Shown: positions 38,045-51,017, counted from the first letter of the stretch. The stretch is 64,000 nt of DNA from Escherichia coli (GCF_003019035.1 NZ_CP027447.1), one strand, 5' to 3'. Translations and numbers: made by a program. Notes: generated from the sequence alone by a model not told the origin.

Positions 38045-39187
38045 TCAAATCTGCTTTTCATACAATCGGTAACGCTTGTACGGCTCCGCCCCAATGCGTT
38101 CCAGCATGTTATTCATGCCTGTATTGGTTTCGAGGATCCATGACATCTCCAGCGCATCGATCTTCCGGCGGGCAAACGGATCGCGTAAGGCTTCAATCAA
38201 TAACAACGCAATCACCGGGCCGATGCGGCTGAACTGATACTCGTCCCGCACGCCCATCAGCGGTACTCGCGCAGTTCGCACACCGCTGACTTTTAAACGC
38301 CACAGCAATTTTGCCCAGCCGAAGGGAAAGAGCGATCCGTTCAGATCGGCAATCGCCTCGTTGATGTTTGGCAAGCCGACAATAAACGCGCAGGGTGCAG
38401 AATCAATCTCAGCGATGTAGATCATATCGTCCGGCACCAGATATTTAAGTTGGTCGCCCATGGTCGCGAATTCATGTTCGGTAAACGGCACAAATCCCCA
38501 GTTGTGCTGCCAGCCAGAATTGAAAATCTCACGCAGGATCTGCATCTCTTCGGCAAACCGCTGGCGATTGATGCAGCGAATGGTCACCTTCTTACGCACC
38601 TGATCCATCAGTTTTTTTAGCGCCGGAGAGAAAGTGAGATCGGTTCGCTGCATCCACCACGCCAGTAAATCAATGCCTTTGTGATAACCCAATTGTTCAA
38701 TATGCGCGGCATACCACGGTTTACCGTGCGGCATCATCGCACAGGGTGGTGTATCGAAACCTTCAATCAGTAATCCGCTTTCCTGATTGATATTCAGGCT
38801 GAAAGGCCCGCTGATCTTACTTGCACCTTGTGACTTCAACCACGCTTCCGCTGCGCCAAACAACGCGGCAAAAACCTGCGGATCATCAATGGCGTCAATC
38901 ATGCCGAAATGACCGGTATCTTTGCCGTAACGCTCGCGGTGCAAGGTATCTATTTGCGCGGTAATACGCCCAACTATCTGCCCCGCTTTTTTTGCCACCC
39001 ACGCCTGCCAGATGATATGGTCCGTCCCCGGATTTTTCGCAGACAAATGCTCGTTGCGTTCAATGAATAAAGGGGGTATCCAGTTTGGATCGTCGGGATA
39101 AAGTGATGACGGAAAAGCGATAAATGCCTTAAGGTCATTTTTATTAATTACTTTTTCAATTTTAATCATCAGCAGATCGCATTCCAT
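38045..39187 (-). CDS. yghO: YghO-like GNAT-fold N-acyltransferase (uncharacterised); candidate lipid N-acyltransferase
   Basis: 380-aa intact ORF convergent with glcC and divergent from the FAAL operon; symbol assigned by synteny. Confidence 0.7.
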   Translation of the reverse strand: MECDLLMIKIEKVINKNDLKAFIAFPSSLYPDDPNWIPPLFIERNEHLSAKNPGTDHIIWQAWVAKKAGQIVGRITAQIDTLHRERYGKDTGHFGMIDAIDDPQVFAALFGAAEAWLKSQGASKISGPFSLNINQESGLLIEGFDTPPCAMMPHGKPWYAAHIEQLGYHKGIDLLAWWMQRTDLTFSPALKKLMDQVRKKVTIRCINRQRFAEEMQILREIFNSGWQHNWGFVPFTEHEFATMGDQLKYLVPDDMIYIAEIDSAPCAFIVGLPNINEAIADLNGSLFPFGWAKLLWRLKVSGVRTARVPLMGVRDEYQFSRIGPVIALLLIEALRDPFARRKIDALEMSWILETNTGMNNMLERIGAEPYKRYRLYEKQI

Positions 39188-39557
39188 AGTTCTGTGGGTA
39201 ACAAATAATTAACGGTGACAAACAGGTTGCAACAGCAACGAACGGCACCTTAATAATCAACCCAATGAATACAAACGACGAATAAATAGTATTTATTAAT
39301 GATTACGATAAGGTCAGAGACTACACAGAAGCGCCACAATGCCTTTTGTCGATTTAAGGCGACCGGACAAGGCTCCTTCTTAATATATTCATAAATTAAA
39401 TATCATTCACAATAAAAACAAAAAACTCAAATTCATTATTTAAATCAATGTTCATTTTCACACTGATGAAAATACTATCTCATTTATCTTTTATGCCTAT
39501 ATAATCCACCGCATTATTGTCATTTTATTTTTGATATCCAATTTTTTCGTGGTGTAT

Positions 39558-41282
39558 ATGTCTAATAAAATCTTTACGCATTCCCTACCTATGCGCTATG
39601 CCGATTTTCCAACGCTGGTTGATGCTTTGGACTATGCCGCTCTGAGTAGCGCTGGAATGAATTTTTATGACAGACGTTGCCAACTTGAAGATCAACTGGA
39701 ATATCAGACGTTAAAAGCGCGTGCCGAAGCTGGTGCGAAGCGGTTGTTATCGCTGAACCTGAAAAAAGGCGATCGCGTGGCACTGATTGCCGAAACCAGT
39801 AGCGGGTTCGTAGAGGCTTTTTTTGCCTGCCAGTATGCCGGCTTAGTCGCCGTCCCGTTGGCGATTCCCATGGGCGTCGGTCAGCGGGATTCCTGGAGCG
39901 CCAAGCTGCAGGGTTTACTGGCAAGTTGCCAGCCCGCAGCCATTATCACTGGTGATGAGTGGTTGCCACTGGTCAATGCCGCGACGCATAACAACAACCC
40001 CGAATTACATGTTTTAAGCCACGCCTGGTTTAAGGCATTACCGGAAGCCGATGTTGCGCTCCAGCGTCCAGTTCCGAACGATATCGCCTACCTCCAGTAC
40101 ACCTCCGGCAGCACCCGTTTTCCCCGTGGCGTCATTATCACCCATCGCGAAGTGATGGCTAATCTACGTGCTATAAGCCACGATGGCATAAAATTACGCC
40201 CTGGCGACCGCTGCGTCTCCTGGCTGCCTTTCTACCATGATATGGGACTGGTCGGCTTTCTCCTGACCCCCGTCGCCACGCAGCTTTCAGTAGATTATTT
40301 GCGCACTCAGGATTTTGCCATGCGTCCTCTGCAATGGCTTAAATTGATCAGTAAAAATCGCGGCACCGTTTCCGTTGCGCCGCCGTTTGGCTATGAATTG
40401 TGCCAGCGCCGCGTGAATGAAAAAGATCTCGCTGAACTGGATCTTTCCTGCTGGCGCGTCGCTGGTATTGGTGCAGAACCCATCTCCGCAGAACAACTCC
40501 ATCAATTCGCTGAATGTTTCCGTCAGGTCAACTTTGACGATAAAACTTTCATGCCGTGCTACGGACTGGCAGAAAATGCGCTGGCTGTCAGCTTCTCTGA
40601 TGAAGCTTCCGGGGTTGTGGTTAACGAAGTGGATCGCGACATCCTCGAATATCAGGGCAAAGCCGTCGCGCCGGATGCTGAAACACGCGCCGTATCGACT
40701 TTCGTCAACTGCGGTAAAGCGTTGCCGGAACATGGCATTGAAATCCGCAATGAAGCAGGTATACCTGTCGCGGAACGTGTGGTAGGCCATATTTGCATCT
40801 CCGGCCCTAGCCTGATGAGCGGTTACTTTGGCGACCAGATTTCACAAGACGAGATTGCCGCGACGGGCTGGTTAGACACCGGCGACCTCGGTTATCTGCT
40901 GGACGGTTATCTGTATGTCACCGGACGCATTAAAGATCTGATTATTATTCGTGGCCGTAATATCTGGCCGCAGGATATTGAATATATTGCGGAACAGGAA
41001 CCGGAAATTCATTCTGGCGATGCGATTGCTTTTGTTACCGCCCAGGAAAAAATCATTTTGCAGATCCAGTGTCGGATCAGCGATGAAGAACGTCGCGGGC
41101 AGCTTATCCACGCGCTGGCAGCACGGATCCAAAGCGAATTTGGTGTGACCGCGGCTATCGATCTGTTGCCGCCCCACAGTATTCCCCGAACGTCCTCCGG
41201 CAAGCCTGCCCGTGCGGAAGCGAAAAAACGTTATCAGAAGGCTTATGCTGCAAGCCTTCATGTGCAGGAATCCCTGGCATGA
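39558..41282 (+). CDS. Fatty acyl-AMP ligase / acyl-CoA (acyl-ACP) synthetase family protein
   Basis: AMP-binding motifs YTSGSTRFPRGV and GYGLAENA-like YGLAENALAV; start uncertain (TTG 39531, ATG 39558 or ATG 39591). Confidence 0.8.
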   Translation: MSNKIFTHSLPMRYADFPTLVDALDYAALSSAGMNFYDRRCQLEDQLEYQTLKARAEAGAKRLLSLNLKKGDRVALIAETSSGFVEAFFACQYAGLVAVPLAIPMGVGQRDSWSAKLQGLLASCQPAAIITGDEWLPLVNAATHNNNPELHVLSHAWFKALPEADVALQRPVPNDIAYLQYTSGSTRFPRGVIITHREVMANLRAISHDGIKLRPGDRCVSWLPFYHDMGLVGFLLTPVATQLSVDYLRTQDFAMRPLQWLKLISKNRGTVSVAPPFGYELCQRRVNEKDLAELDLSCWRVAGIGAEPISAEQLHQFAECFRQVNFDDKTFMPCYGLAENALAVSFSDEASGVVVNEVDRDILEYQGKAVAPDAETRAVSTFVNCGKALPEHGIEIRNEAGIPVAERVVGHICISGPSLMSGYFGDQISQDEIAATGWLDTGDLGYLLDGYLYVTGRIKDLIIIRGRNIWPQDIEYIAEQEPEIHSGDAIAFVTAQEKIILQIQCRISDEERRGQLIHALAARIQSEFGVTAAIDLLPPHSIPRTSSGKPARAEAKKRYQKAYAASLHVQESLA

Positions 41283-42193
41283 ATCAAACTGTCGCGGTGA
41301 CGGGCGCTACCGGGTTTATCGGTAAATATATTATCGATAACCTGCTCGCCCGCGGCTTTCACGTTCGCGCATTGACGCGTACTGCCCGTGCTCACGTCAA
41401 TGACAATCTCATCTGGGTGCGCGGTTCTCTGGAAGATACTCATTCACTTAGCGAACTGGTTGCCGGAGCCAGCGTGGTGGTCCATTGCGCCGGGCAAGTG
41501 CGCGGGCACAAAGAAGAGATTTTTACCCGCTGTAACGTTGACGGCAGCCTGCGACTGATGCAAGCGGCAAAAGAGAGCGGCTTTTGCCAACGTTTTCTGT
41601 TTATCTCTTCGCTGGCGGCGCGCCATCCCGAACTCTCCTGGTACGCAAATTCCAAACACGTCGCCGAACAACGGCTGACTGCAATGGCTGATGAAATTAC
41701 GCTGGGCGTTTTTCGCCCGACAGCCGTGTATGGTCCCGGCGATAAAGAGTTAAAACCGCTGTTTGACTGGATGCTGCGCGGCCTGCTGCCACGACTTGGT
41801 GCGCCAGATACACAACTCTCTTTCCTGCACGTCACCGATTTTGCGCAAGCAGTGGGTCAGTGGTTAAGCGCCGAAACTGTACAGACGCAAACCTATGAAT
41901 TATGCGATGGCGTCGCTGGCGGCTATGACTGGCAACGCGTACGACAGCTTGCCGCCGAAGCCCGTTGTGGTTCTGTGCAGATGGTTGGCATTCCTCTGCC
42001 GGTACTCACCTGCCTTGCGGATATCAGTACTGCGTTGAGTCGCCTGGCAGGTAAAGAACCTATGCTGACCCGCTCGAAAATTCGTGAATTAACCCACGCC
42101 GACTGGTCGGCAAATAATAACCGTATTTCTGAAGATATTAATTGGTTTCCCGGGATTAGCCTGGAACACGCATTACGCAACGGGCTATTTTGA
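41279..42193 (+). CDS. NAD(P)-dependent epimerase/dehydratase-family SDR (candidate keto-reductase)
   Basis: VTGATGFIGKYI Rossmann motif, YANSK catalytic YxxxK; ATGA start/stop overlap with upstream gene. Confidence 0.85.
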   Translation: MNQTVAVTGATGFIGKYIIDNLLARGFHVRALTRTARAHVNDNLIWVRGSLEDTHSLSELVAGASVVVHCAGQVRGHKEEIFTRCNVDGSLRLMQAAKESGFCQRFLFISSLAARHPELSWYANSKHVAEQRLTAMADEITLGVFRPTAVYGPGDKELKPLFDWMLRGLLPRLGAPDTQLSFLHVTDFAQAVGQWLSAETVQTQTYELCDGVAGGYDWQRVRQLAAEARCGSVQMVGIPLPVLTCLADISTALSRLAGKEPMLTRSKIRELTHADWSANNNRISEDINWFPGISLEHALRNGLF

Positions 42194-42224
42194 TTGTCTT
42201 GTTTAAAGGTGTGTTAACGTTTCT

Positions 42225-42473
42225 ATGGTAAATCGTGAAATAGTAATGGATTACATCCTTTCCTGTTTACAGGATTTGGTCGAAAACGGTGTGGAAATTA
42301 AGCCCAACAGCGATCTCGTCAACGATCTTGGCCTGGAGTCGATCAAAGTGATGGATCTCTTAATGATGCTGGAAGACAGATTCGATATTTCCATTCCTAT
42401 TAATATTCTGCTGGATGTCAAAACCCCTGTGCAATTAATGGAAACTCTACTTCCATGGCTGGAGAATAAATAA
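42225..42473 (+). CDS. Acyl carrier protein
   Basis: 82 aa; phosphopantetheine attachment motif DLGLESI; acidic helical protein. Confidence 0.85.
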   Translation: MVNREIVMDYILSCLQDLVENGVEIKPNSDLVNDLGLESIKVMDLLMMLEDRFDISIPINILLDVKTPVQLMETLLPWLENK

Positions 42474-43645
42474 TGGGGCTATACGATAAATATGCGCGCC
42501 TTGCTGGCGAGCGACTGCAATTTAGTGACAACGGGTTAACGCCGTTTGGTACCTGTATTGATGAAGTGTATTCCGCCACCGAAGGTCGGATCGGCAATAA
42601 AAAAGTGATTCTGGCCGGGACCAATAATTATCTCGGTTTAACCTTTAATCATGATGCCATCGCCGAAGGTCAGGCAGCGTTAGCGGCCCAAGGCACCGGC
42701 ACCACCGGTTCTCGTATGGCTAATGGCAGTTATGCGCCGCATCTGGCGTTAGAGAAAGAGATTGCCGAGTTTTTCAATCGCCCTACCGCTATCGTTTTTT
42801 CAACCGGTTATACCGCTAATTTAGGCGTCATCAGCGCACTTGCCGACCATAACGCCGTGGTGTTACTGGATGCCGACAGCCACGCCAGTATTTATGACGC
42901 CTGTTCTCTCGGTGGCGCGGAAATTATTCGTTTCCGCCATAACGATGCTAAAGATCTGGAACGGCGCATGGTTCGCCTCGGTGAACGGGCGAAAGAGGCG
43001 ATTATCATCGTTGAGGGCATCTACAGCATGCTCGGTGACGTTGCGCCGTTAGCGGAAATTGTTGATATCAAACGTCGTCTCGGTGGTTATTTGATTGTCG
43101 ATGAAGCGCATTCGTTTGGCGTGTTAGGCGCAACGGGGCGCGGACTGGCTGAAGCCGTTGGCGTTGAAGATGATGTGGATATTATCGTTGGTACTTTCAG
43201 TAAAAGTCTGGCCTCGATTGGCGGTTTTGCTGTCGGTTCGGAAGCGATGGAAGTGTTGCGCTACGGCAGCCGCCCGTATATTTTTACCGCCTCTCCTTCT
43301 CCGTCCTGCATTGCGACCGTGCGCTCGTCGTTAAGAACCATTGCCTCACAACCAGAGCTGCGGCAAAAGCTGATGGATAACGCCAACCATCTGTATGACG
43401 GTCTGCAAAAACTGGGTTATGAGTTAAGTTCACATATTAGCCCGGTAGTGCCGGTAATAATCGGTTCGAAAGAGGACGGTTTACGCATCTGGCGCGAGCT
43501 TATTTCGCTGGGCGTTTATGTGAATCTTATCCTGCCACCTGCCGCGCCTGCAGGCATCACTCTGCTGCGCTGTAGCGTAAACGCTGCCCACAGTCATGAG
43601 CAAATCGATGCCATCATTCAGGCATTTGCTACTCTGAAGCAGTAA
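42473..43645 (+). CDS. Alpha-oxoamine synthase (PLP-dependent; serine palmitoyltransferase / KBL / BioF family)
   Basis: 390 aa; GTNNYLGL, DEAHSFGVLG, GTFSKSLASIGG (PLP lysine); TAATG overlap with ACP gene. Confidence 0.85.
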   Translation: MGLYDKYARLAGERLQFSDNGLTPFGTCIDEVYSATEGRIGNKKVILAGTNNYLGLTFNHDAIAEGQAALAAQGTGTTGSRMANGSYAPHLALEKEIAEFFNRPTAIVFSTGYTANLGVISALADHNAVVLLDADSHASIYDACSLGGAEIIRFRHNDAKDLERRMVRLGERAKEAIIIVEGIYSMLGDVAPLAEIVDIKRRLGGYLIVDEAHSFGVLGATGRGLAEAVGVEDDVDIIVGTFSKSLASIGGFAVGSEAMEVLRYGSRPYIFTASPSPSCIATVRSSLRTIASQPELRQKLMDNANHLYDGLQKLGYELSSHISPVVPVIIGSKEDGLRIWRELISLGVYVNLILPPAAPAGITLLRCSVNAAHSHEQIDAIIQAFATLKQ

Positions 43646-43651
43646 TGTGAG

Positions 43652-43684
43652 CCCGCCGTGGTGTTGCGCCACGGCGGGTTTAAT
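43652..43684 (+). terminator. Rho-independent terminator of the FAAL-SDR-ACP-AOS operon at the convergent junction
   Basis: CCCGCCGTGG-TGTTGCG-CCACGGCGGG followed by TTTAAT; coordinates approximate. Confidence 0.55.
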
Positions 43685-44759
43685 GTTGTCTGTCATACCA
43701 ATACACCAGGCTCAACGCCATCAGGACAAACGCTACCGGTAAACCGAGCGCGGTAACAGGTGCACTCAACGCAAATAGCAACCCCAGATTGACCATGATT
43801 TGATAGCTGATCCAGGTGAGTAAGCCAACGATGACGCCTACAGCGAGACGGCTACCCATCCCTGGCGAGCGCGGGGCGCTAAAGGTGAACGGCACAGCCA
43901 GCAAAATCATCGCCAGGGTCAGGATCGGTTGCCCCAGTTTTTCCCACAGTGCAAGGCGGTATTCGCTGCTGGGTTGTCCGGTTTCCTGCAAATAATGGAT
44001 GTAATGATTAAGCTGACGGACAGAAAAAGTATTCCCCGGCATCGATAACTCTTCAAGATCCATACTGGTGAAGGCCGATTGCCAGGCAAGATTATCTGAT
44101 GTTTCCAGCGTTTCTTTGCCATTCAACCATTTTTTATGATTCACACCATGCAGGATCCACGTTTTGTCGTCTTCAATGGAGGCACTGCGTGCAAAAATGT
44201 AGGATTCGAGCGAGAGATCGTCGCGATAATGAAATATCTCCACGCCCACAGGCTGGCCCTGCTCGTTCAGCGATTTCACCGTCACAAATTCATTACCGCG
44301 CCTGGCCCAAAGCATATTGCCGGTAATGTCATCGTCCTCCCCCAACGCGGTGGCAGTCGATTTGATTTGCAGCGCCTGTTGCTGCAATGGCGACGCCACC
44401 CACTCATCTATCGCGCCTAACGAAACAGTCCACAATATCCCGGCAACCAGCGCCACCAGTGCAATACGGAAGATAGAAAACCCAGTGCTGCGAATGGCGG
44501 TAAGCTCACTGTTTTTCGATAACTGCCCCAGGCCAACAATCCCTCCCAATAATGCGATAAATGGCGAAAGTTCGACCAGTGTACGCGGTAAGGTCATCAG
44601 CACCACCAGCACCGCCTGAGTCCAGCGATAACCGCCCGGGCTGACATCATCCAGTTCGTTAATCAGGTTGAAGGTGGTAAAAAGCGGCAGCAATAGCCCT
44701 GCGGCGGCGGCAAAACCGAGAAAGAGATGACGGATTAAATAGCGACTGAAAACATTCAT
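43680..44759 (-). CDS. LptG-like permease (YjgP/YjgQ family)
   Basis: Six-TM architecture with large periplasmic domain; start set at MNVFSRYLIRHLF, overlapping the upstream stop (ATGA). Confidence 0.8.
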   Translation of the reverse strand: MNVFSRYLIRHLFLGFAAAAGLLLPLFTTFNLINELDDVSPGGYRWTQAVLVVLMTLPRTLVELSPFIALLGGIVGLGQLSKNSELTAIRSTGFSIFRIALVALVAGILWTVSLGAIDEWVASPLQQQALQIKSTATALGEDDDITGNMLWARRGNEFVTVKSLNEQGQPVGVEIFHYRDDLSLESYIFARSASIEDDKTWILHGVNHKKWLNGKETLETSDNLAWQSAFTSMDLEELSMPGNTFSVRQLNHYIHYLQETGQPSSEYRLALWEKLGQPILTLAMILLAVPFTFSAPRSPGMGSRLAVGVIVGLLTWISYQIMVNLGLLFALSAPVTALGLPVAFVLMALSLVYWYDRQH

Positions 44760-45826
44760 CGGGAAAATTTCTGCAGCAAAGAGAAGTCGCGTGCGACCAG
44801 CATCAGCAGGCCCATTAGCATGAGTCCGGGTACTAACCACAAACCAGGAATGAGGGGAATCGCACCGTTAGCCACCAGCGTACGGCAGACGTCGCCGCCA
44901 TAAAAAATGGCAACAAACAGCAACGTCAGTGGCAATAACGTTGAAAATCGCCCTTGCCGCGGTTTTACCCGACTTAATGAAATGGCCAGCAGCGCCATCA
45001 ACAATGCGGTCAGGCCACGGCTTTGTCGCCATTGCAGTTCGGCATGATCGGCTGGAAAGACGGAGCGCGCCAGCTCCGTGACCGATTTTGCTTTGCGTTT
45101 GACGTTAGGGCTTTGATCCAGCTGATTCAGATGTAATTGCAGATTACGGTAGATCTGTTCGTTGTCGTCACGCCCCTGATGATCGAGAAGATAGGCGGTC
45201 CCGTTATGCAACATAACGGTCGGTTTCTCAGGTGATGGGTCAACCACATCAACCGAACGGGCGCGGAAAATGCGGGTTCGATTGGCAGTAGAAGTATAAA
45301 TCAGCGCGTCAGTCAGGCGATTATTATCCTGATCAACCGTCTGCGAAAGGATCATTCGTCCGTTATCGTTAGTGTTAAATTTCTTTGCCCGCAACTGGCG
45401 AACATCCAGCTCCGACTGCGACTGTTGCTCCAGTTGATAAATCTGCGCATAAGCCCACGGCCGACCATACATCGACAGAAGGGTGACAAAAATACTTAGC
45501 GGTATCGCCAGATAAAGAACGGCTTTGTACAAGCGTCCCGGACTGCCCCCCGCCGCAGAGATAGCGGTAATTTCCGAGTCGGTATACATCTGCCCTAGCG
45601 TCACGCCAACTGACACATACAGACCAACAGGTAACAACATCTCCAGTGCAATCAGCACTTTGTAGAAAACGATATCCAGCACAACATCAAGAGCTAAGGT
45701 CCCATTTGCCGCTTCGGTCAGATAACGCTGTGCGGAGTAGCTGGCGAAAATAAAGATCAGAAAACCGACGATAATCAGCACCAGACGGCGCGTACCACGC
45801 ATGATGTAGTGTTCAACCAGCTTCAT
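44756..45826 (-). CDS. LptF-like permease (YjgP/YjgQ family)
   Basis: 356 aa, same architecture, translationally coupled to the LptG-like gene. Confidence 0.8.
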   Translation of the reverse strand: MKLVEHYIMRGTRRLVLIIVGFLIFIFASYSAQRYLTEAANGTLALDVVLDIVFYKVLIALEMLLPVGLYVSVGVTLGQMYTDSEITAISAAGGSPGRLYKAVLYLAIPLSIFVTLLSMYGRPWAYAQIYQLEQQSQSELDVRQLRAKKFNTNDNGRMILSQTVDQDNNRLTDALIYTSTANRTRIFRARSVDVVDPSPEKPTVMLHNGTAYLLDHQGRDDNEQIYRNLQLHLNQLDQSPNVKRKAKSVTELARSVFPADHAELQWRQSRGLTALLMALLAISLSRVKPRQGRFSTLLPLTLLFVAIFYGGDVCRTLVANGAIPLIPGLWLVPGLMLMGLLMLVARDFSLLQKFSR

Positions 45827-45856: not shown

Positions 45857-46420
45857 TTATTCATTGATCAGTTTCTGCGCCAGCGCAATGACATGATCTA
45901 CCTCTTCCGGCGTCAGGCTGCCGTCCTTTGCCCACTGAATTTGCCCGTCTTTATTCAGCACCAGAATGGTTGAACTCTGCTCCGGCAACCGCCAGGCAAC
46001 GCGTCCCAGTCCATTGCCGTCAATAACGAATTGCGCCCACGGATAGCGGCGTTTATTTTTTTCGATTTTGCCAACGACAAAATAGCCAGTACCGAAGATG
46101 GCATCATCGGTGTTCACAATGGTGGTGGGCTGAAAACGATCCTGCGGAAAGTTTGCCGCTTCAACCGCTTTAATTAACAGTGAGTTCTTTTTCTTCGCCG
46201 ACTTACGCCCGGCGATATACTGAATAATGCGGACTTTTCCCGCCAGCTGTGTGCTGTTCCACTTTTGGTAGTGAATTTCGTCGTCGCTATTCAGAAGCAG
46301 CTCGCCGCCTTCCTGGATATAAACGGGGGTAACCGTTTTGCCAGTGACGAAATTGTGTGCCTGCACACCCTGGGCTAAGAGCATGATAATCAGCGCAATA
46401 ATCAAACGAGATGACATCAT
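45857..46420 (-). CDS. Periplasmic YtfJ-like protein
   Basis: 187 aa with signal peptide MMSSRLIIALIIMLLAQGVQA; family assignment tentative. Confidence 0.6.
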   Translation of the reverse strand: MMSSRLIIALIIMLLAQGVQAHNFVTGKTVTPVYIQEGGELLLNSDDEIHYQKWNSTQLAGKVRIIQYIAGRKSAKKKNSLLIKAVEAANFPQDRFQPTTIVNTDDAIFGTGYFVVGKIEKNKRRYPWAQFVIDGNGLGRVAWRLPEQSSTILVLNKDGQIQWAKDGSLTPEEVDHVIALAQKLINE

Positions 46421-46428
46421 TGCTCCGG

Positions 46429-47253
46429 TTATAGCGGAAAACGCGAAATCAGCAGCTCTAAGCGCTGGCGAATATCGCTATCCAGCGCCACCGGTGCATC
46501 ATACGACTGGCGGTTTTCCATATCATCCGCCACCATGTCGTCGTGTTTATCCCCCATCAGGCCATTAATGGCGGCGAGGAAGCGGGAAATCTGTAACGCC
46601 TCTTTATTTTCAGGATCAAGCGATCTTAAGGTGTCGTAATAAGAAACCTGCTGGCTGATGATTTTTCGCACATCATGAAATTCCCTGCCGGTGAGTCGCG
46701 GTTTGGCAATTATCTCTTTCAGGGTATGCATTTGCTTTTGCCGATAGGCAATAAAACCGCTTACGCTTTCTAACTGGCTATGGCGTAATGAATAGTTCAC
46801 CAACGACCAGACCGGAGAGCTTAAATAAACCCGTAACAGGTTGCCGTAATACGACACAATATTTTTCTTACCGTTACGAAAACCGTCCTGAAAACGCCCC
46901 AAAAAAACGGTCGTTTTGCCGAATAAAAATCCGGCCTGATGCTTCTTTAAATACAGCCGTTGCGCAAAACGCAGGTGCTTGTAGCGCGCTCGCATGTATT
47001 TATACTTTTTGCGCTCATCGTCGGTAAGTATTTTGCCTTTTGCTTGTTTCAGCGTTAAGCGAAGTAACTCTTTGCGATTTACACCATCCAGCCAGAATCT
47101 CAAACATAAGGCATAATTGTCATGAATAATCTCCGGTGAACAGCGCAAAGTGATCGTTGGCGGCAAGCTAACCTGTGTGTCAATAACATCATTATCATCA
47201 ACAGCAATAAATAAACGCTCAATGACCTCAAGTGGAAAGTATTTTCTCATCAT
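46429..47253 (-). CDS. Hypothetical basic protein of unknown function
   Basis: 274-aa ORF in operon context, Lys/Arg-rich, no recognisable motif. Confidence 0.6.
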   Translation of the reverse strand: MMRKYFPLEVIERLFIAVDDNDVIDTQVSLPPTITLRCSPEIIHDNYALCLRFWLDGVNRKELLRLTLKQAKGKILTDDERKKYKYMRARYKHLRFAQRLYLKKHQAGFLFGKTTVFLGRFQDGFRNGKKNIVSYYGNLLRVYLSSPVWSLVNYSLRHSQLESVSGFIAYRQKQMHTLKEIIAKPRLTGREFHDVRKIISQQVSYYDTLRSLDPENKEALQISRFLAAINGLMGDKHDDMVADDMENRQSYDAPVALDSDIRQRLELLISRFPL

Positions 47254-48602
47254 TGGAATTTTTCTCCGACTCCGTTATAGACCAATAAATGGCGACGGAG
47301 AAAAGTCCTTAATGTCGGTGCTAACGACAGGATCACATCCAGACATTGACCACCGAAATAAGCAAATGCAGCCCCCATTACGCCAAACAGATGACAAAAC
47401 ATAAACAACAAAATAACGTAAGCTAACGATGCAATAGTTTGTGCTATCAAAAAAGCGCGCTGTTTTCCCGCCATCAATAGCAATGACTCCTGAGGGAAGC
47501 CCAGCATCGAGATCACAATTGCGCCCAGCATCACCTGAATCAGGTCATACGCTTCGAGATACTTAACGCCAAACACCAGCGAAATAAGCGGCTTGCCGAC
47601 GATCAACACCGCGAGCGCCACCAGAATTCCGATTCCGCCCGCCAGTAAACCTGACTTCACGCCTAACAACCACGGTCTGGTGGTGCGCGGATCTAAACGC
47701 ATCACCTCTGGGTAAAAACTTTTGCCCAGTAAACCCGCTGGCGTTCCGGCGGCGTCGAAGAATGTCATGGCGATTTTAAATAACCCGGCGGCAGCGGGTC
47801 CTAACACGATCCCCACCAGCACTGTGCTGCACGAGTTACGCGCCGACCAGATGGAGTGGGCAATGTTGGTTGACCAGACAAAACTCCACGCGCCTTTGAT
47901 GTGTCGGGCAGACTCAAACAGATTCAATTTGAACGCGTTATGGATATTTCTGCGGCGTAATTCGCGCGCGGCAAACCACCAGTACATGGTGCCGCCAACC
48001 AGATTCGACACGTACCAGGCAATAACAAAGCCCGCAAAACCAAAGTCAAAATACCAGGCTACGACGCTCCCCGCTGCGCGCAGAAAAGGTTTCGTCGCTT
48101 GCTGTACAGCAATTAGATCGAAGCGATCTACCGCACGCAGAATGCCGGTCGGCGTGGAGGAAGCCATTGAAGGAATGAGCGTGCAATACAGCGCTGCCAG
48201 CCAAAAGCTTTGGTCATCCAGACCTAATGAATGGGAAAGAAAAGGGAGTAAGGCAATGCCGCCGACAATCGCCACCGCGCCGCTGACGATATCCAGCGAG
48301 AAGGAAAATGAGACGACATTGCGGAATTGCTGCGGATTATTGTTGGTTAATGCTGGTGTTCCGTACTGAACCACCAGCTGCCATGTCTGAAACTTAATAA
48401 AATCGCTGATCGACTTGGCGTACGATTGTACAATCACCAGTACGCCAAACATGGCGGGCGTCATCCCTTTACCGGCACACGAGAGCGCCAACAGACCCAG
48501 TAAAGCGCTCACGACATTACTGGAGCCTAACCAGGCGCTATTGCGAATAATGGTGCGAAACGCGCCATCTGCAAACCAATGTTTGATGTTAAAACCCGCC
48601 AA
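47250..48602 (-). CDS. yghQ: MOP/PST-family polysaccharide or lipid flippase (Wzx-like)
   Basis: 450-aa polytopic ORF; synteny upstream of yghR. Confidence 0.8.
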   Translation of the reverse strand: MAGFNIKHWFADGAFRTIIRNSAWLGSSNVVSALLGLLALSCAGKGMTPAMFGVLVIVQSYAKSISDFIKFQTWQLVVQYGTPALTNNNPQQFRNVVSFSFSLDIVSGAVAIVGGIALLPFLSHSLGLDDQSFWLAALYCTLIPSMASSTPTGILRAVDRFDLIAVQQATKPFLRAAGSVVAWYFDFGFAGFVIAWYVSNLVGGTMYWWFAARELRRRNIHNAFKLNLFESARHIKGAWSFVWSTNIAHSIWSARNSCSTVLVGIVLGPAAAGLFKIAMTFFDAAGTPAGLLGKSFYPEVMRLDPRTTRPWLLGVKSGLLAGGIGILVALAVLIVGKPLISLVFGVKYLEAYDLIQVMLGAIVISMLGFPQESLLLMAGKQRAFLIAQTIASLAYVILLFMFCHLFGVMGAAFAYFGGQCLDVILSLAPTLRTFLRRHLLVYNGVGEKFQ

Positions 48603-50324: not shown

Positions 50325-51017
50325 ATGCAGTCAATAACACCTCCATTAATTGCCGTTATTGGTAGCGATGGTTCAGGCAAGTCAACGGTGTGTGAACATC
50401 TCATTACCGTTGTCGAAAAATATGGTGCTGCCGAAAGAGTTCATTTAGGAAAACAGGCCGGAAATGTCGGTCGTGCAGTGACAAAATTACCGTTGATGGG
50501 AAAATCCTTACATAAAACAATTGAACGAAATCAGGTGAAAACAGCAAAAAAATTGCCAGGACCAGTTCCGGCGCTGGTAATTACAGCGTTTGTCGCCCGT
50601 CGCTTACTGCGCTTTCGTCATATGCTTGCCTGTCGTCGTCGCGGGTTAATTGTTCTAACCGACCGTTATCCTCAGGACCAAATTCCTGGCGCTTACGATG
50701 GTACAGTGTTCCCACCTAACATTGAAGGTGGTCGTTTTGTCTCATGGCTGGCAAGCTAGGAACGTAAAGCGTTTCACTGGATGGCGAGCCATAAACCGGA
50801 TCTGGTCATCAAACTCAATGTTGACCTTGAAGTTGCCTGCGCGCGTAAACCCGACCATAAACGGGAATCGCTGGCGAGGAAGATTGCCATAACGCCACAG
50901 TTAACCTTTGGCGGTGCACAACTGGTTGATATCGATGCTAATCAGCCACTGGAAAAGGTGCTGATTGATGCAGAAAAAGCGATTACGGATTTTATGACCG
51001 CGCGTGGTTATCACTAG
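50325..51017 (+). pseudogene. yghT: yghT-like P-loop paralog interrupted by an in-frame TAG
   Basis: ORFs 50325-50759 and 50781-51017 are in the same frame, separated only by TAG at 50757-50759; joined they give a 230-codon yghR/yghS paralog ([13 protein letters not shown]). Confidence 0.75.

Follow-up and report, generated by a model that had tools for sequence, protein, structure and literature searches.

A very probable Caulobacter-type dihydroceramide pathway at the yghO locus of Escherichia coli, and the genes that travel with it

Textbooks credit Escherichia coli with only three major membrane lipids. Does it also hold the genes of a ceramide pathway? The question is raised by the yghO locus of Escherichia coli NZ_CP027447.1, in a stretch of 64,000 nucleotides (hereafter the window, from whose start all coordinates are counted), where a first-pass annotation had noticed yghO, a gene for an acyltransferase-like protein, diverging from a four-gene operon, and had proposed that the five genes make a sphingoid base, a ceramide-like lipid or a related N-acyl amino-lipid. 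The answer we reach is that the locus very probably encodes a dihydroceramide pathway of the Caulobacter type, whose product would most likely be exported by the ATPase LptB together with LptF2 and LptG2, two diverged paralogues of LptF and LptG encoded next to the cluster. The cluster is a rediscovery, since for E. coli B there are already published accounts of the locus, of what its genes encode and of how three of the five proteins act. Padilla-Gómez et al. (2022, Front Microbiol; PMC9386255) described these genes in E. coli BL21(DE3) as ECD_02850 (yghO, aca or cerS), ECD_02851 (aasR), ECD_02852 (epi or cerR), ECD_02853 (acpR) and ECD_02854 (spt), and obtained 3-oxo-sphinganine when AasREc, AcpREc and SPTEc were co-expressed. 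The first-pass view of an uncharacterised system does not hold: since 2022 the literature contains its name, a comparison with Caulobacter and assays of a part of it, and the RefSeq annotation, which reads yghO, fatty acyl-AMP ligase, NAD-dependent epimerase/dehydratase family protein, acyl carrier protein and 'spt: serine palmitoyltransferase', already names the last enzyme.

The five enzymes and the pathway they would form

The core of the locus is made up of the following features.
38045-39187, minus strand: yghO-like open reading frame (ORF), 380 aa, orthologue of the bacterial ceramide synthase (bCerS/cerS/aca), with a predicted tandem GNAT fold
39188-39557, no strand: AT-rich divergent intergenic and presumably regulatory region between yghO and aasR, about 32% GC
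39558-41282, plus strand: aasR, acyl-AcpR synthetase of the fatty acyl-AMP ligase (FAAL) family by its match to NF006624, 574 aa from the RefSeq start, with an ORF reaching a TTG at 39531
41279-42193, plus strand: cerR, NDUFA9-like extended SDR, orthologue of the ceramide/3-keto reductase by Pfam match and relatives in the PDB, 304 aa
42225-42473, plus strand: acpR, specialised acyl carrier protein (ACP) by its match to ACP models, with the DLGLES phosphopantetheine site, 82 aa
42473-43645, plus strand: spt, serine palmitoyltransferase (SPT) by its match to NF047599, 390 aa

All five ORFs were recovered by translation where the first-pass annotation had placed them, together with its motifs YANSK, DLGLESI and GTFSK and its two overlaps, ATGA at 41279-41282 (stop of aasR, start of cerR) and TAATG at 42471-42475 (stop of acpR, start of spt). 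The FAAL-family ORF can be read from 39531, the RefSeq start is the ATG at 39558, and the alignment with the family model agrees with the latter. According to the start chosen, the yghO-aasR intergenic region measures 343-403 bp; it is AT-rich as had been said, its GC content being 32% where the flanking genes have about 52%. A scan of this region for the sigma-70 consensus gave matches not above chance, and an Rfam search of it returned no family. The five ORFs are not the product of chance, as their strong family matches, their conservation across genera and their ratios of nonsynonymous to synonymous substitution (dN/dS) of 0.03-0.14 attest. The protein identities given below were computed against the B-lineage strain NEBExpress, which we take to be a BL21 derivative.

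The alpha-oxoamine synthase is the enzyme whose grouping with BioF or KBL would, according to the first-pass annotation, have spoken against a sphingoid product; by profile comparison it groups with SPT, and not with BioF, KBL or CqsA. Its score against NF047599, the NCBIfam equivalog model of SPT, is 599 bits for a cut-off of 500, and it stays under the cut-offs (in brackets) of the sister models, with 334 bits for bioF (426), 297 for kbl (460), 221 for the CqsA type (428) and 219 for ALAS (339). Among solved structures, the SPT of Sphingomonas paucimobilis (2jg2) reaches 375 bits and that of Sphingobacterium 266, KBL about 190-200, BioF about 175-182 and CqsA 126. The protein thus shares with KBL, BioF, CqsA and ALAS the fold-type I family of pyridoxal phosphate (PLP) enzymes and the catalytic lysine motif, but it lies below all their curated cut-offs and scores 170-250 bits less with them than with SPT on solved structures. 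The alignment to 2jg2 keeps the equivalents of H159, D231, H234, K265 and R390 (here H137, D210, H213 and K244), and Spt is 99.2% identical to the B-lineage protein. The latter's counterpart in BL21(DE3), SPTEc (ECD_02854), prefers acyl-AcpR to acyl-CoA when assayed in vitro with 14C-serine (PMC9386255).

Could the enzyme nevertheless use another amino acid, or make a product that is not sphingoid, for example an N-acyl amino lipid or a signal of the CAI-1 type? PMC9386255 has a section headed with the relaxed amino-acid specificity of bacterial SPTs, and Arg378 of the Sphingomonas enzyme is not conserved in Spt; but 14C-serine is built into 3-oxo-sphinganine by the E. coli B enzyme in vitro (PMC9386255), and the SPT model outscores the CqsA model by 599 bits to 221. 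We consider a different substrate or product highly improbable, and retain serine palmitoyltransferase as the assignment.

AcpR matches ACP models and is 97.6% identical to the B-lineage protein; its gene lies directly upstream of spt, with overlapping stop and start codons. The same acpR-spt pair was found in 38-39 of the 80 reference-genome loci of a neighbourhood survey seeded on YghO, in which the presence or absence of cer and lpt genes was recorded within 10 kb and whose scan pattern was built from a 13-sequence alignment; the 80 loci span several phyla, 14 of them belonging to Enterobacterales and 66 lying outside. Labelling with beta-alanine has established that AcpREc (ECD_02853) bears a 4'-phosphopantetheine (PMC9386255). 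AasR, 98% identical to the B-lineage protein, scores 872 bits against NF006624, a model of fatty acyl-AMP ligases whose cut-off is 600, and stays far under the cut-offs of the FadD-type CoA ligase models. Its BL21(DE3) counterpart AasREc (ECD_02851) is needed with AcpREc and SPTEc for 3-oxo-sphinganine to be made in vivo, and the acylation by AasR of AcpR, rather than of CoA or the housekeeping AcpP, was observed in vitro for the Caulobacter enzyme and, for E. coli, as a specificity of complementation in vivo only (PMC9386255).

CerR, 96.7% identical to the B-lineage protein, falls into the Pfam families Epimerase and NmrA and carries the two motifs of an extended SDR (GxxGxxG and YxxxK), in the form of an N-terminal GATGFIG and of YANSK. 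Kinship with sugar epimerases, which the first-pass annotation had opposed to its own proposal, is the more distant one: the closest relatives of CerR in the PDB are the 39-kDa/NDUFA9 subunits of complex I (E 1e-11 to 1e-9), with the UDP-glucose epimerase GalE at about 1e-5. The CerR of Caulobacter is likewise NDUFA9-like (PMC11087976). For the orthology of CerR and YghO to CC_1164 and CC_1154 we relied on the published table (PMC9386255 Table S2), which gives 34% identity and E 7e-38 between ECD_02852 and CC_1164, and 44% identity and E 1e-107 between ECD_02850, the B-strain YghO, and CC_1154.

YghO is 100% identical to the B-lineage protein, and its family is large, counting 1,128 representatives at E <= 1e-30. 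Pfam and NCBIfam searches with it returned no match, and its profile found only marginal matches among PDB sequences, all of them GNATs, so that a structure prediction was needed. The AlphaFold2 model, built from a 92-sequence alignment, has a pLDDT of 96.5 and a pTM of 0.93, and Foldseek relates it to the tandem GNATs 2wpw, 7q3a, 5kf1, MshD, Eis and FemX (best E 4.5e-15, TM 0.56-0.73). YghO is thus confidently predicted to have a tandem GNAT acyltransferase fold, the fold whose lack would have been at variance with the function first proposed. Some members of the family (784, 630 and 940 aa) contain additional fused domains or a duplication, and the member of 784 aa contains two matching stretches, the best at residues 410-782. 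Shimwellia pseudoproteus possesses a second YghO paralogue (74% identity) on another contig, with no cer or lpt gene within 10 kb.

In the pathway that we consider most likely for these proteins, the one already published for bacteria, AasR would adenylate a free long-chain fatty acid and load it onto the phosphopantetheine arm of AcpR, and Spt, through PLP and Lys244, would condense the acyl-AcpR with L-serine to give 3-oxo-sphinganine and CO2. As orthology, fold and gene context suggest, YghO (bCerS) would attach the second, amide-linked acyl chain and CerR would reduce the 3-keto group, the result being dihydroceramide; the order of N-acylation and reduction is disputed even in Caulobacter (PMC9386255, PMC11087976). 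On similar grounds, LptF2 and LptG2 would, together with the housekeeping ATPase LptB, most likely carry the lipid from the inner membrane towards the outer one. Other workers have shown the steps of AasR, AcpR and Spt with proteins of E. coli B that share 97-99% identity with those of the window (PMC9386255). The sphingoid-base or ceramide-type function suggested at first pass is therefore supported by profile, structure and published E. coli B protein data, and the accompanying remark, that such lipids are not known from E. coli, stands for native production only.

Presence, loss and selection

How widely is the locus held, and is it used? Of the 5,426 E. coli genomes that are complete, 4,068 cover at least 80% of the five-gene stretch, and 4,051 (75%), CFT073 among them, have the whole 15.3-kb stretch from glcC to pitB intact. 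The first-pass annotation had mentioned a K-12 remnant beside an IS5, which is what the genomes of the K-12 type contain: of the query they keep just bases 3-1103, in yghO, followed by IS5 and a truncated yghQ, the insertion sequence replacing everything from the 5' end of yghO to the 3' part of yghQ and leaving yghRST in place. Several classes of loss exist beside this IS5 deletion, and the locus has therefore been lost independently several times. Some cattle isolates retain just a distal portion of pitB.

Outside E. coli, orthologous modules surrounded by other flanking genes occur in Serratia, Pluralibacter, Shimwellia, Erwinia, Tatumella, Citrobacter, Pseudocitrobacter, Rosenbergiella, Hafnia and Mangrovibacter. 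In the survey of 80 YghO loci, at least one cer gene lies within 10 kb in 46 and all four in 32, paralogues of lptFG in 48, and one or the other in 70. In Nitrosomonas the YghO homologue adjoins lptFG-like genes and no spt is present within 10 kb; spt and aca of N. eutropha have been reported at distant loci (PMC9386255).

Several observations weigh against a dihydroceramide pathway at work in this bacterium. BL21 with empty vectors, grown in LB, formed no detectable 3-oxo-sphinganine (PMC9386255), and we found no report of a ceramide or sphingoid base from unmodified E. coli in the literature searched, which covered few subscription journals. The evidence for the activity of E. coli CerR and YghO consists only of spots from BL21 in thin-layer chromatography 'migrating like' sphinganine or ceramide (PMC9386255). 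The position of Sphingomonas Arg378 is occupied by a leucine in Spt (alignment to 2jg2). About a quarter of E. coli genomes are without the locus, by several classes of deletion of which some remove more than that of K-12. Finally, yghT, a gene at the far end of the locus, has an in-frame TAG at 50757-50759 in the window, where a CAG codon, which SCU-301 and the B strain retain, has become TAG (Q145*).

The native locus appears to be silent under standard laboratory growth, and one may ask whether it is a cryptic and effectively unused remnant, whose enzymes are competent when overexpressed and which yields no sphingolipid in nature. The empty-vector result in BL21 (PMC9386255), the loss of the locus from about 25% of genomes through several deletion classes and the nonsense codon of yghT are what such a remnant would present, and the 32% GC of the promoter region, a type of DNA that is often silenced, could by inference be added to them. 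Against it stand the 4,051 genomes in which all ORFs are intact, the maintenance of the module in many genera of Enterobacterales at differing chromosomal sites and the dN/dS values: in comparisons of the window with the B-lineage strain and with a divergent Escherichia lineage, these are 0.03-0.14 for all 12 measurable genes, from yghO to yghS. Such values argue against a decaying remnant; all the genes from yghO to yghS are under purifying selection, and we regard an unused relic as unlikely.

A selected dihydroceramide pathway is the reading that we prefer, and its significance lies in its distribution: 75% of complete E. coli genomes hold an intact, selectively maintained ceramide pathway together with what is predicted to be its own Lpt-type exporter. 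Because the region is deleted from K-12, decades of lipid work on that strain could not have brought the pathway to light.

Export and the co-travelling genes

Beyond spt, the locus continues with the following features.
43648-43682, no strand: terminator-like hairpin with a 16-bp stem, between the convergent stop codons of spt and lptG2
43680-44759, minus strand: lptG2, diverged LptG paralogue, 359 aa (TIGR04408, 305 bits)
44756-45826, minus strand: lptF2, diverged LptF paralogue, 356 aa (TIGR04407, 320 bits)
45857-46420, minus strand: YtfJ-family protein with a signal-peptide-like N-terminus (TIGR01626, 216 bits)
46429-47253, minus strand: ORF for a protein of 274 aa without assigned family
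47250-48602, minus strand: yghQ, flippase-like membrane protein of the MOP/Polysacc_synt type by profile match, 450 aa
48648-50151, minus strand: yghR and yghS, paralogous P-loop proteins of 252 and 237 aa with a predicted thymidylate-kinase fold (weak TIGR00041 match, and fold)
50325-51017, plus strand: yghT, third paralogue of yghR and yghS, interrupted by an in-frame TAG

A perfect-looking hairpin with a 16-bp stem, a candidate bidirectional terminator, fills the 34 bp that separate the stop codon of spt from the convergent stop codon of lptG2. LptF2 and LptG2 match the LptF and LptG family models over their full length, but have only 93 and 145 bits, respectively, against the housekeeping LptF (6mhu_F) and LptG (6mhu_G) of E. 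coli, and are for this reason considered deep paralogues. The lptFG-like genes of the survey stand beside the YghO homologues in 48 of the 80 loci. In Caulobacter, LptF2 and LptG2 are essential once sphingolipids are made and bind the housekeeping LptB, and the sphingolipid operons of E. coli UTI89, lptF2 and lptG2 included, have been drawn in the same work (bioRxiv 10.64898/2026.04.12.717747). RefSeq calls the products of 43680-45826 (minus strand) 'LPS export ABC transporter permease LptG/LptF' (LPS, lipopolysaccharide) because they pass the TIGR equivalog cut-offs; judging from the sequence comparisons, these names are probably an over-annotation of paralogues that belong to the sphingolipid locus.

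The genes further downstream also tend to accompany the cluster. The YtfJ-like gene does so in 9 of the 14 Enterobacterales loci. The lysine- and arginine-rich 274-aa protein has no match in Pfam, NCBIfam or PADLOC; it is conserved in the Enterobacterales modules and, with about 50% identity, adjoins YghO homologues in Luteibacter and Dyella, where a YghQ-like gene is present too, such YghQ-like genes occurring in 5 non-enterobacterial loci in all. Between the window and the B strain the 274-aa protein has 90.5% amino acid identity and a synonymous divergence (dS) of 0.35, compared with 0.05-0.12 for its neighbours, and dS is also raised in yghQ (0.19), which hints at allelic exchange in these two genes.

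YghR, YghS and YghT match TIGR00041 weakly and under its cut-off (25-31 bits against 83 for YghS and YghT), and RefSeq labels YghS and YghT 'dTMP kinase' despite scores so far below it. The alignment of the family that they form has an invariant Walker A, DRYPQ and RKPDH, and the fold common to the three paralogues is thymidylate-kinase-like, with a further, hydrophobic insertion of some 40 residues; the AlphaFold2 model of YghR (pLDDT 81.5) retrieves thymidylate kinases in Foldseek at E of about 1e-7 and about 17% identity, the insertion being of low confidence. Searches of PDB sequences with YghR and the YtfJ-like protein gave no useful match. Over 29.5 kb, the window differs from strain SCU-301 by 4 single-nucleotide polymorphisms, one of which is the truncation of yghT. 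A defence system was considered as another function for these genes and rejected, as PADLOC gave no hit for YghO, the YtfJ-like protein or the 274-aa protein and, in the case of YghR/S/T, only P-loop noise. Homology of YghR/S/T to the Caulobacter ceramide kinase was also rejected: the latter, CpgB, is of the diacylglycerol (DAG)-kinase/LCB5 type, and YghR has a thymidylate-kinase fold. That YghR/S/T are functional analogues of a ceramide kinase is possible, a bare conjecture at present.

The co-occurrence of these genes with the cluster is suggestive of a larger functional module, and is not proof of one. Might ceramide be an intermediate, from which a 13-kb module builds and exports a head-group-modified sphingolipid, for instance a phosphorylated one, that differs from the ceramide phosphoglycerates of Caulobacter? 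In Enterobacterales with differing flanks, the downstream genes move together with the five core genes; the 274-aa and YghQ-like genes beside the YghO homologues of Luteibacter and Dyella, and the YghR-family pairs that adjoin cer genes in Pseudomonas marginalis and in a betaproteobacterium (the only two such loci outside Enterobacterales), extend the association; YghR combines the fold of a P-loop kinase with the conserved Walker A, DRYPQ and RKPDH; and no CpgB-like, DAG-kinase-type ceramide kinase is annotated in the locus. However, the association outside Enterobacterales concerns just 2-5 of 66 loci, synteny within one order could reflect inheritance rather than function, a thymidylate-kinase fold is uninformative on a lipid substrate, K-12 retains yghRST without the cer genes, and yghT is broken in the window. 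A modified head group is thus possible, though on balance doubtful. In its fullest form, the model would take as its unit a module of 13 genes and about 13 kb, from yghO to yghT, present in most E. coli and in many Enterobacterales, in which ceramide would be made, a head group would be added through YghR/S/T, YghQ, the periplasmic YtfJ-like protein and the 274-aa protein, and the lipid would be exported by LptB-F2G2, wild E. coli thereby possessing a conditionally expressed outer-membrane sphingolipid. We advance this fullest form as a speculative and quite doubtful proposal; if true, an outer-membrane sphingolipid of wild E. coli has been missed by the work on K-12. We found no published link of the downstream genes to the ceramide pathway in the literature searched, again with few subscription journals covered. 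The core finding adds nothing new; the interest that remains is modest, and concerns the native product, the conditions that induce it and the six downstream genes.

Comparison with known loci

How, finally, does the Caulobacter-type dihydroceramide pathway proposed for the window compare with the systems already known? The genes ECD_02850-ECD_02854 of BL21(DE3) are this very locus; they occupy an identical chromosomal site, on the glcC side, with the same gene order and overlaps, and the differences are allelic only, the proteins of the window being 96.7-100% identical to those of the B-lineage strain. According to PMC9386255, C. crescentus and E. coli BL21 alone have the five dihydroceramide genes in one cluster.

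The LptB2FG extractor of lipopolysaccharide offers a second comparison; the sphingolipid locus of E. coli is without a dedicated LptB or LptC. In Caulobacter and Sphingomonas, LptF2 and LptG2 are encoded inside the sphingolipid locus, as they are in E. coli.

In Caulobacter crescentus (Olea-Ozuna 2021 and Stankeviciute 2022, as quoted by other authors), the same five enzyme families are present, as CC_1165, CC_1164, CC_1163 and CC_1162 (aasR, cerR, acpR and spt) together with CC_1154 (bcerS). The Caulobacter and E. coli loci have in common the adjacent acpR and spt and the presence of lptF2/lptG2 paralogues. They differ in what surrounds this core: the head-group genes of Caulobacter, namely CpgB (the DAG-kinase-type ceramide kinase) and CC_1161, CC_1159, CC_1158, CC_1153 and CC_1152, as well as LptC2, are not in the E. 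coli locus, whereas the YtfJ-like protein, the 274-aa protein, YghQ and the thymidylate-kinase-like YghR, YghS and YghT belong to the locus of E. coli and not to that of Caulobacter.

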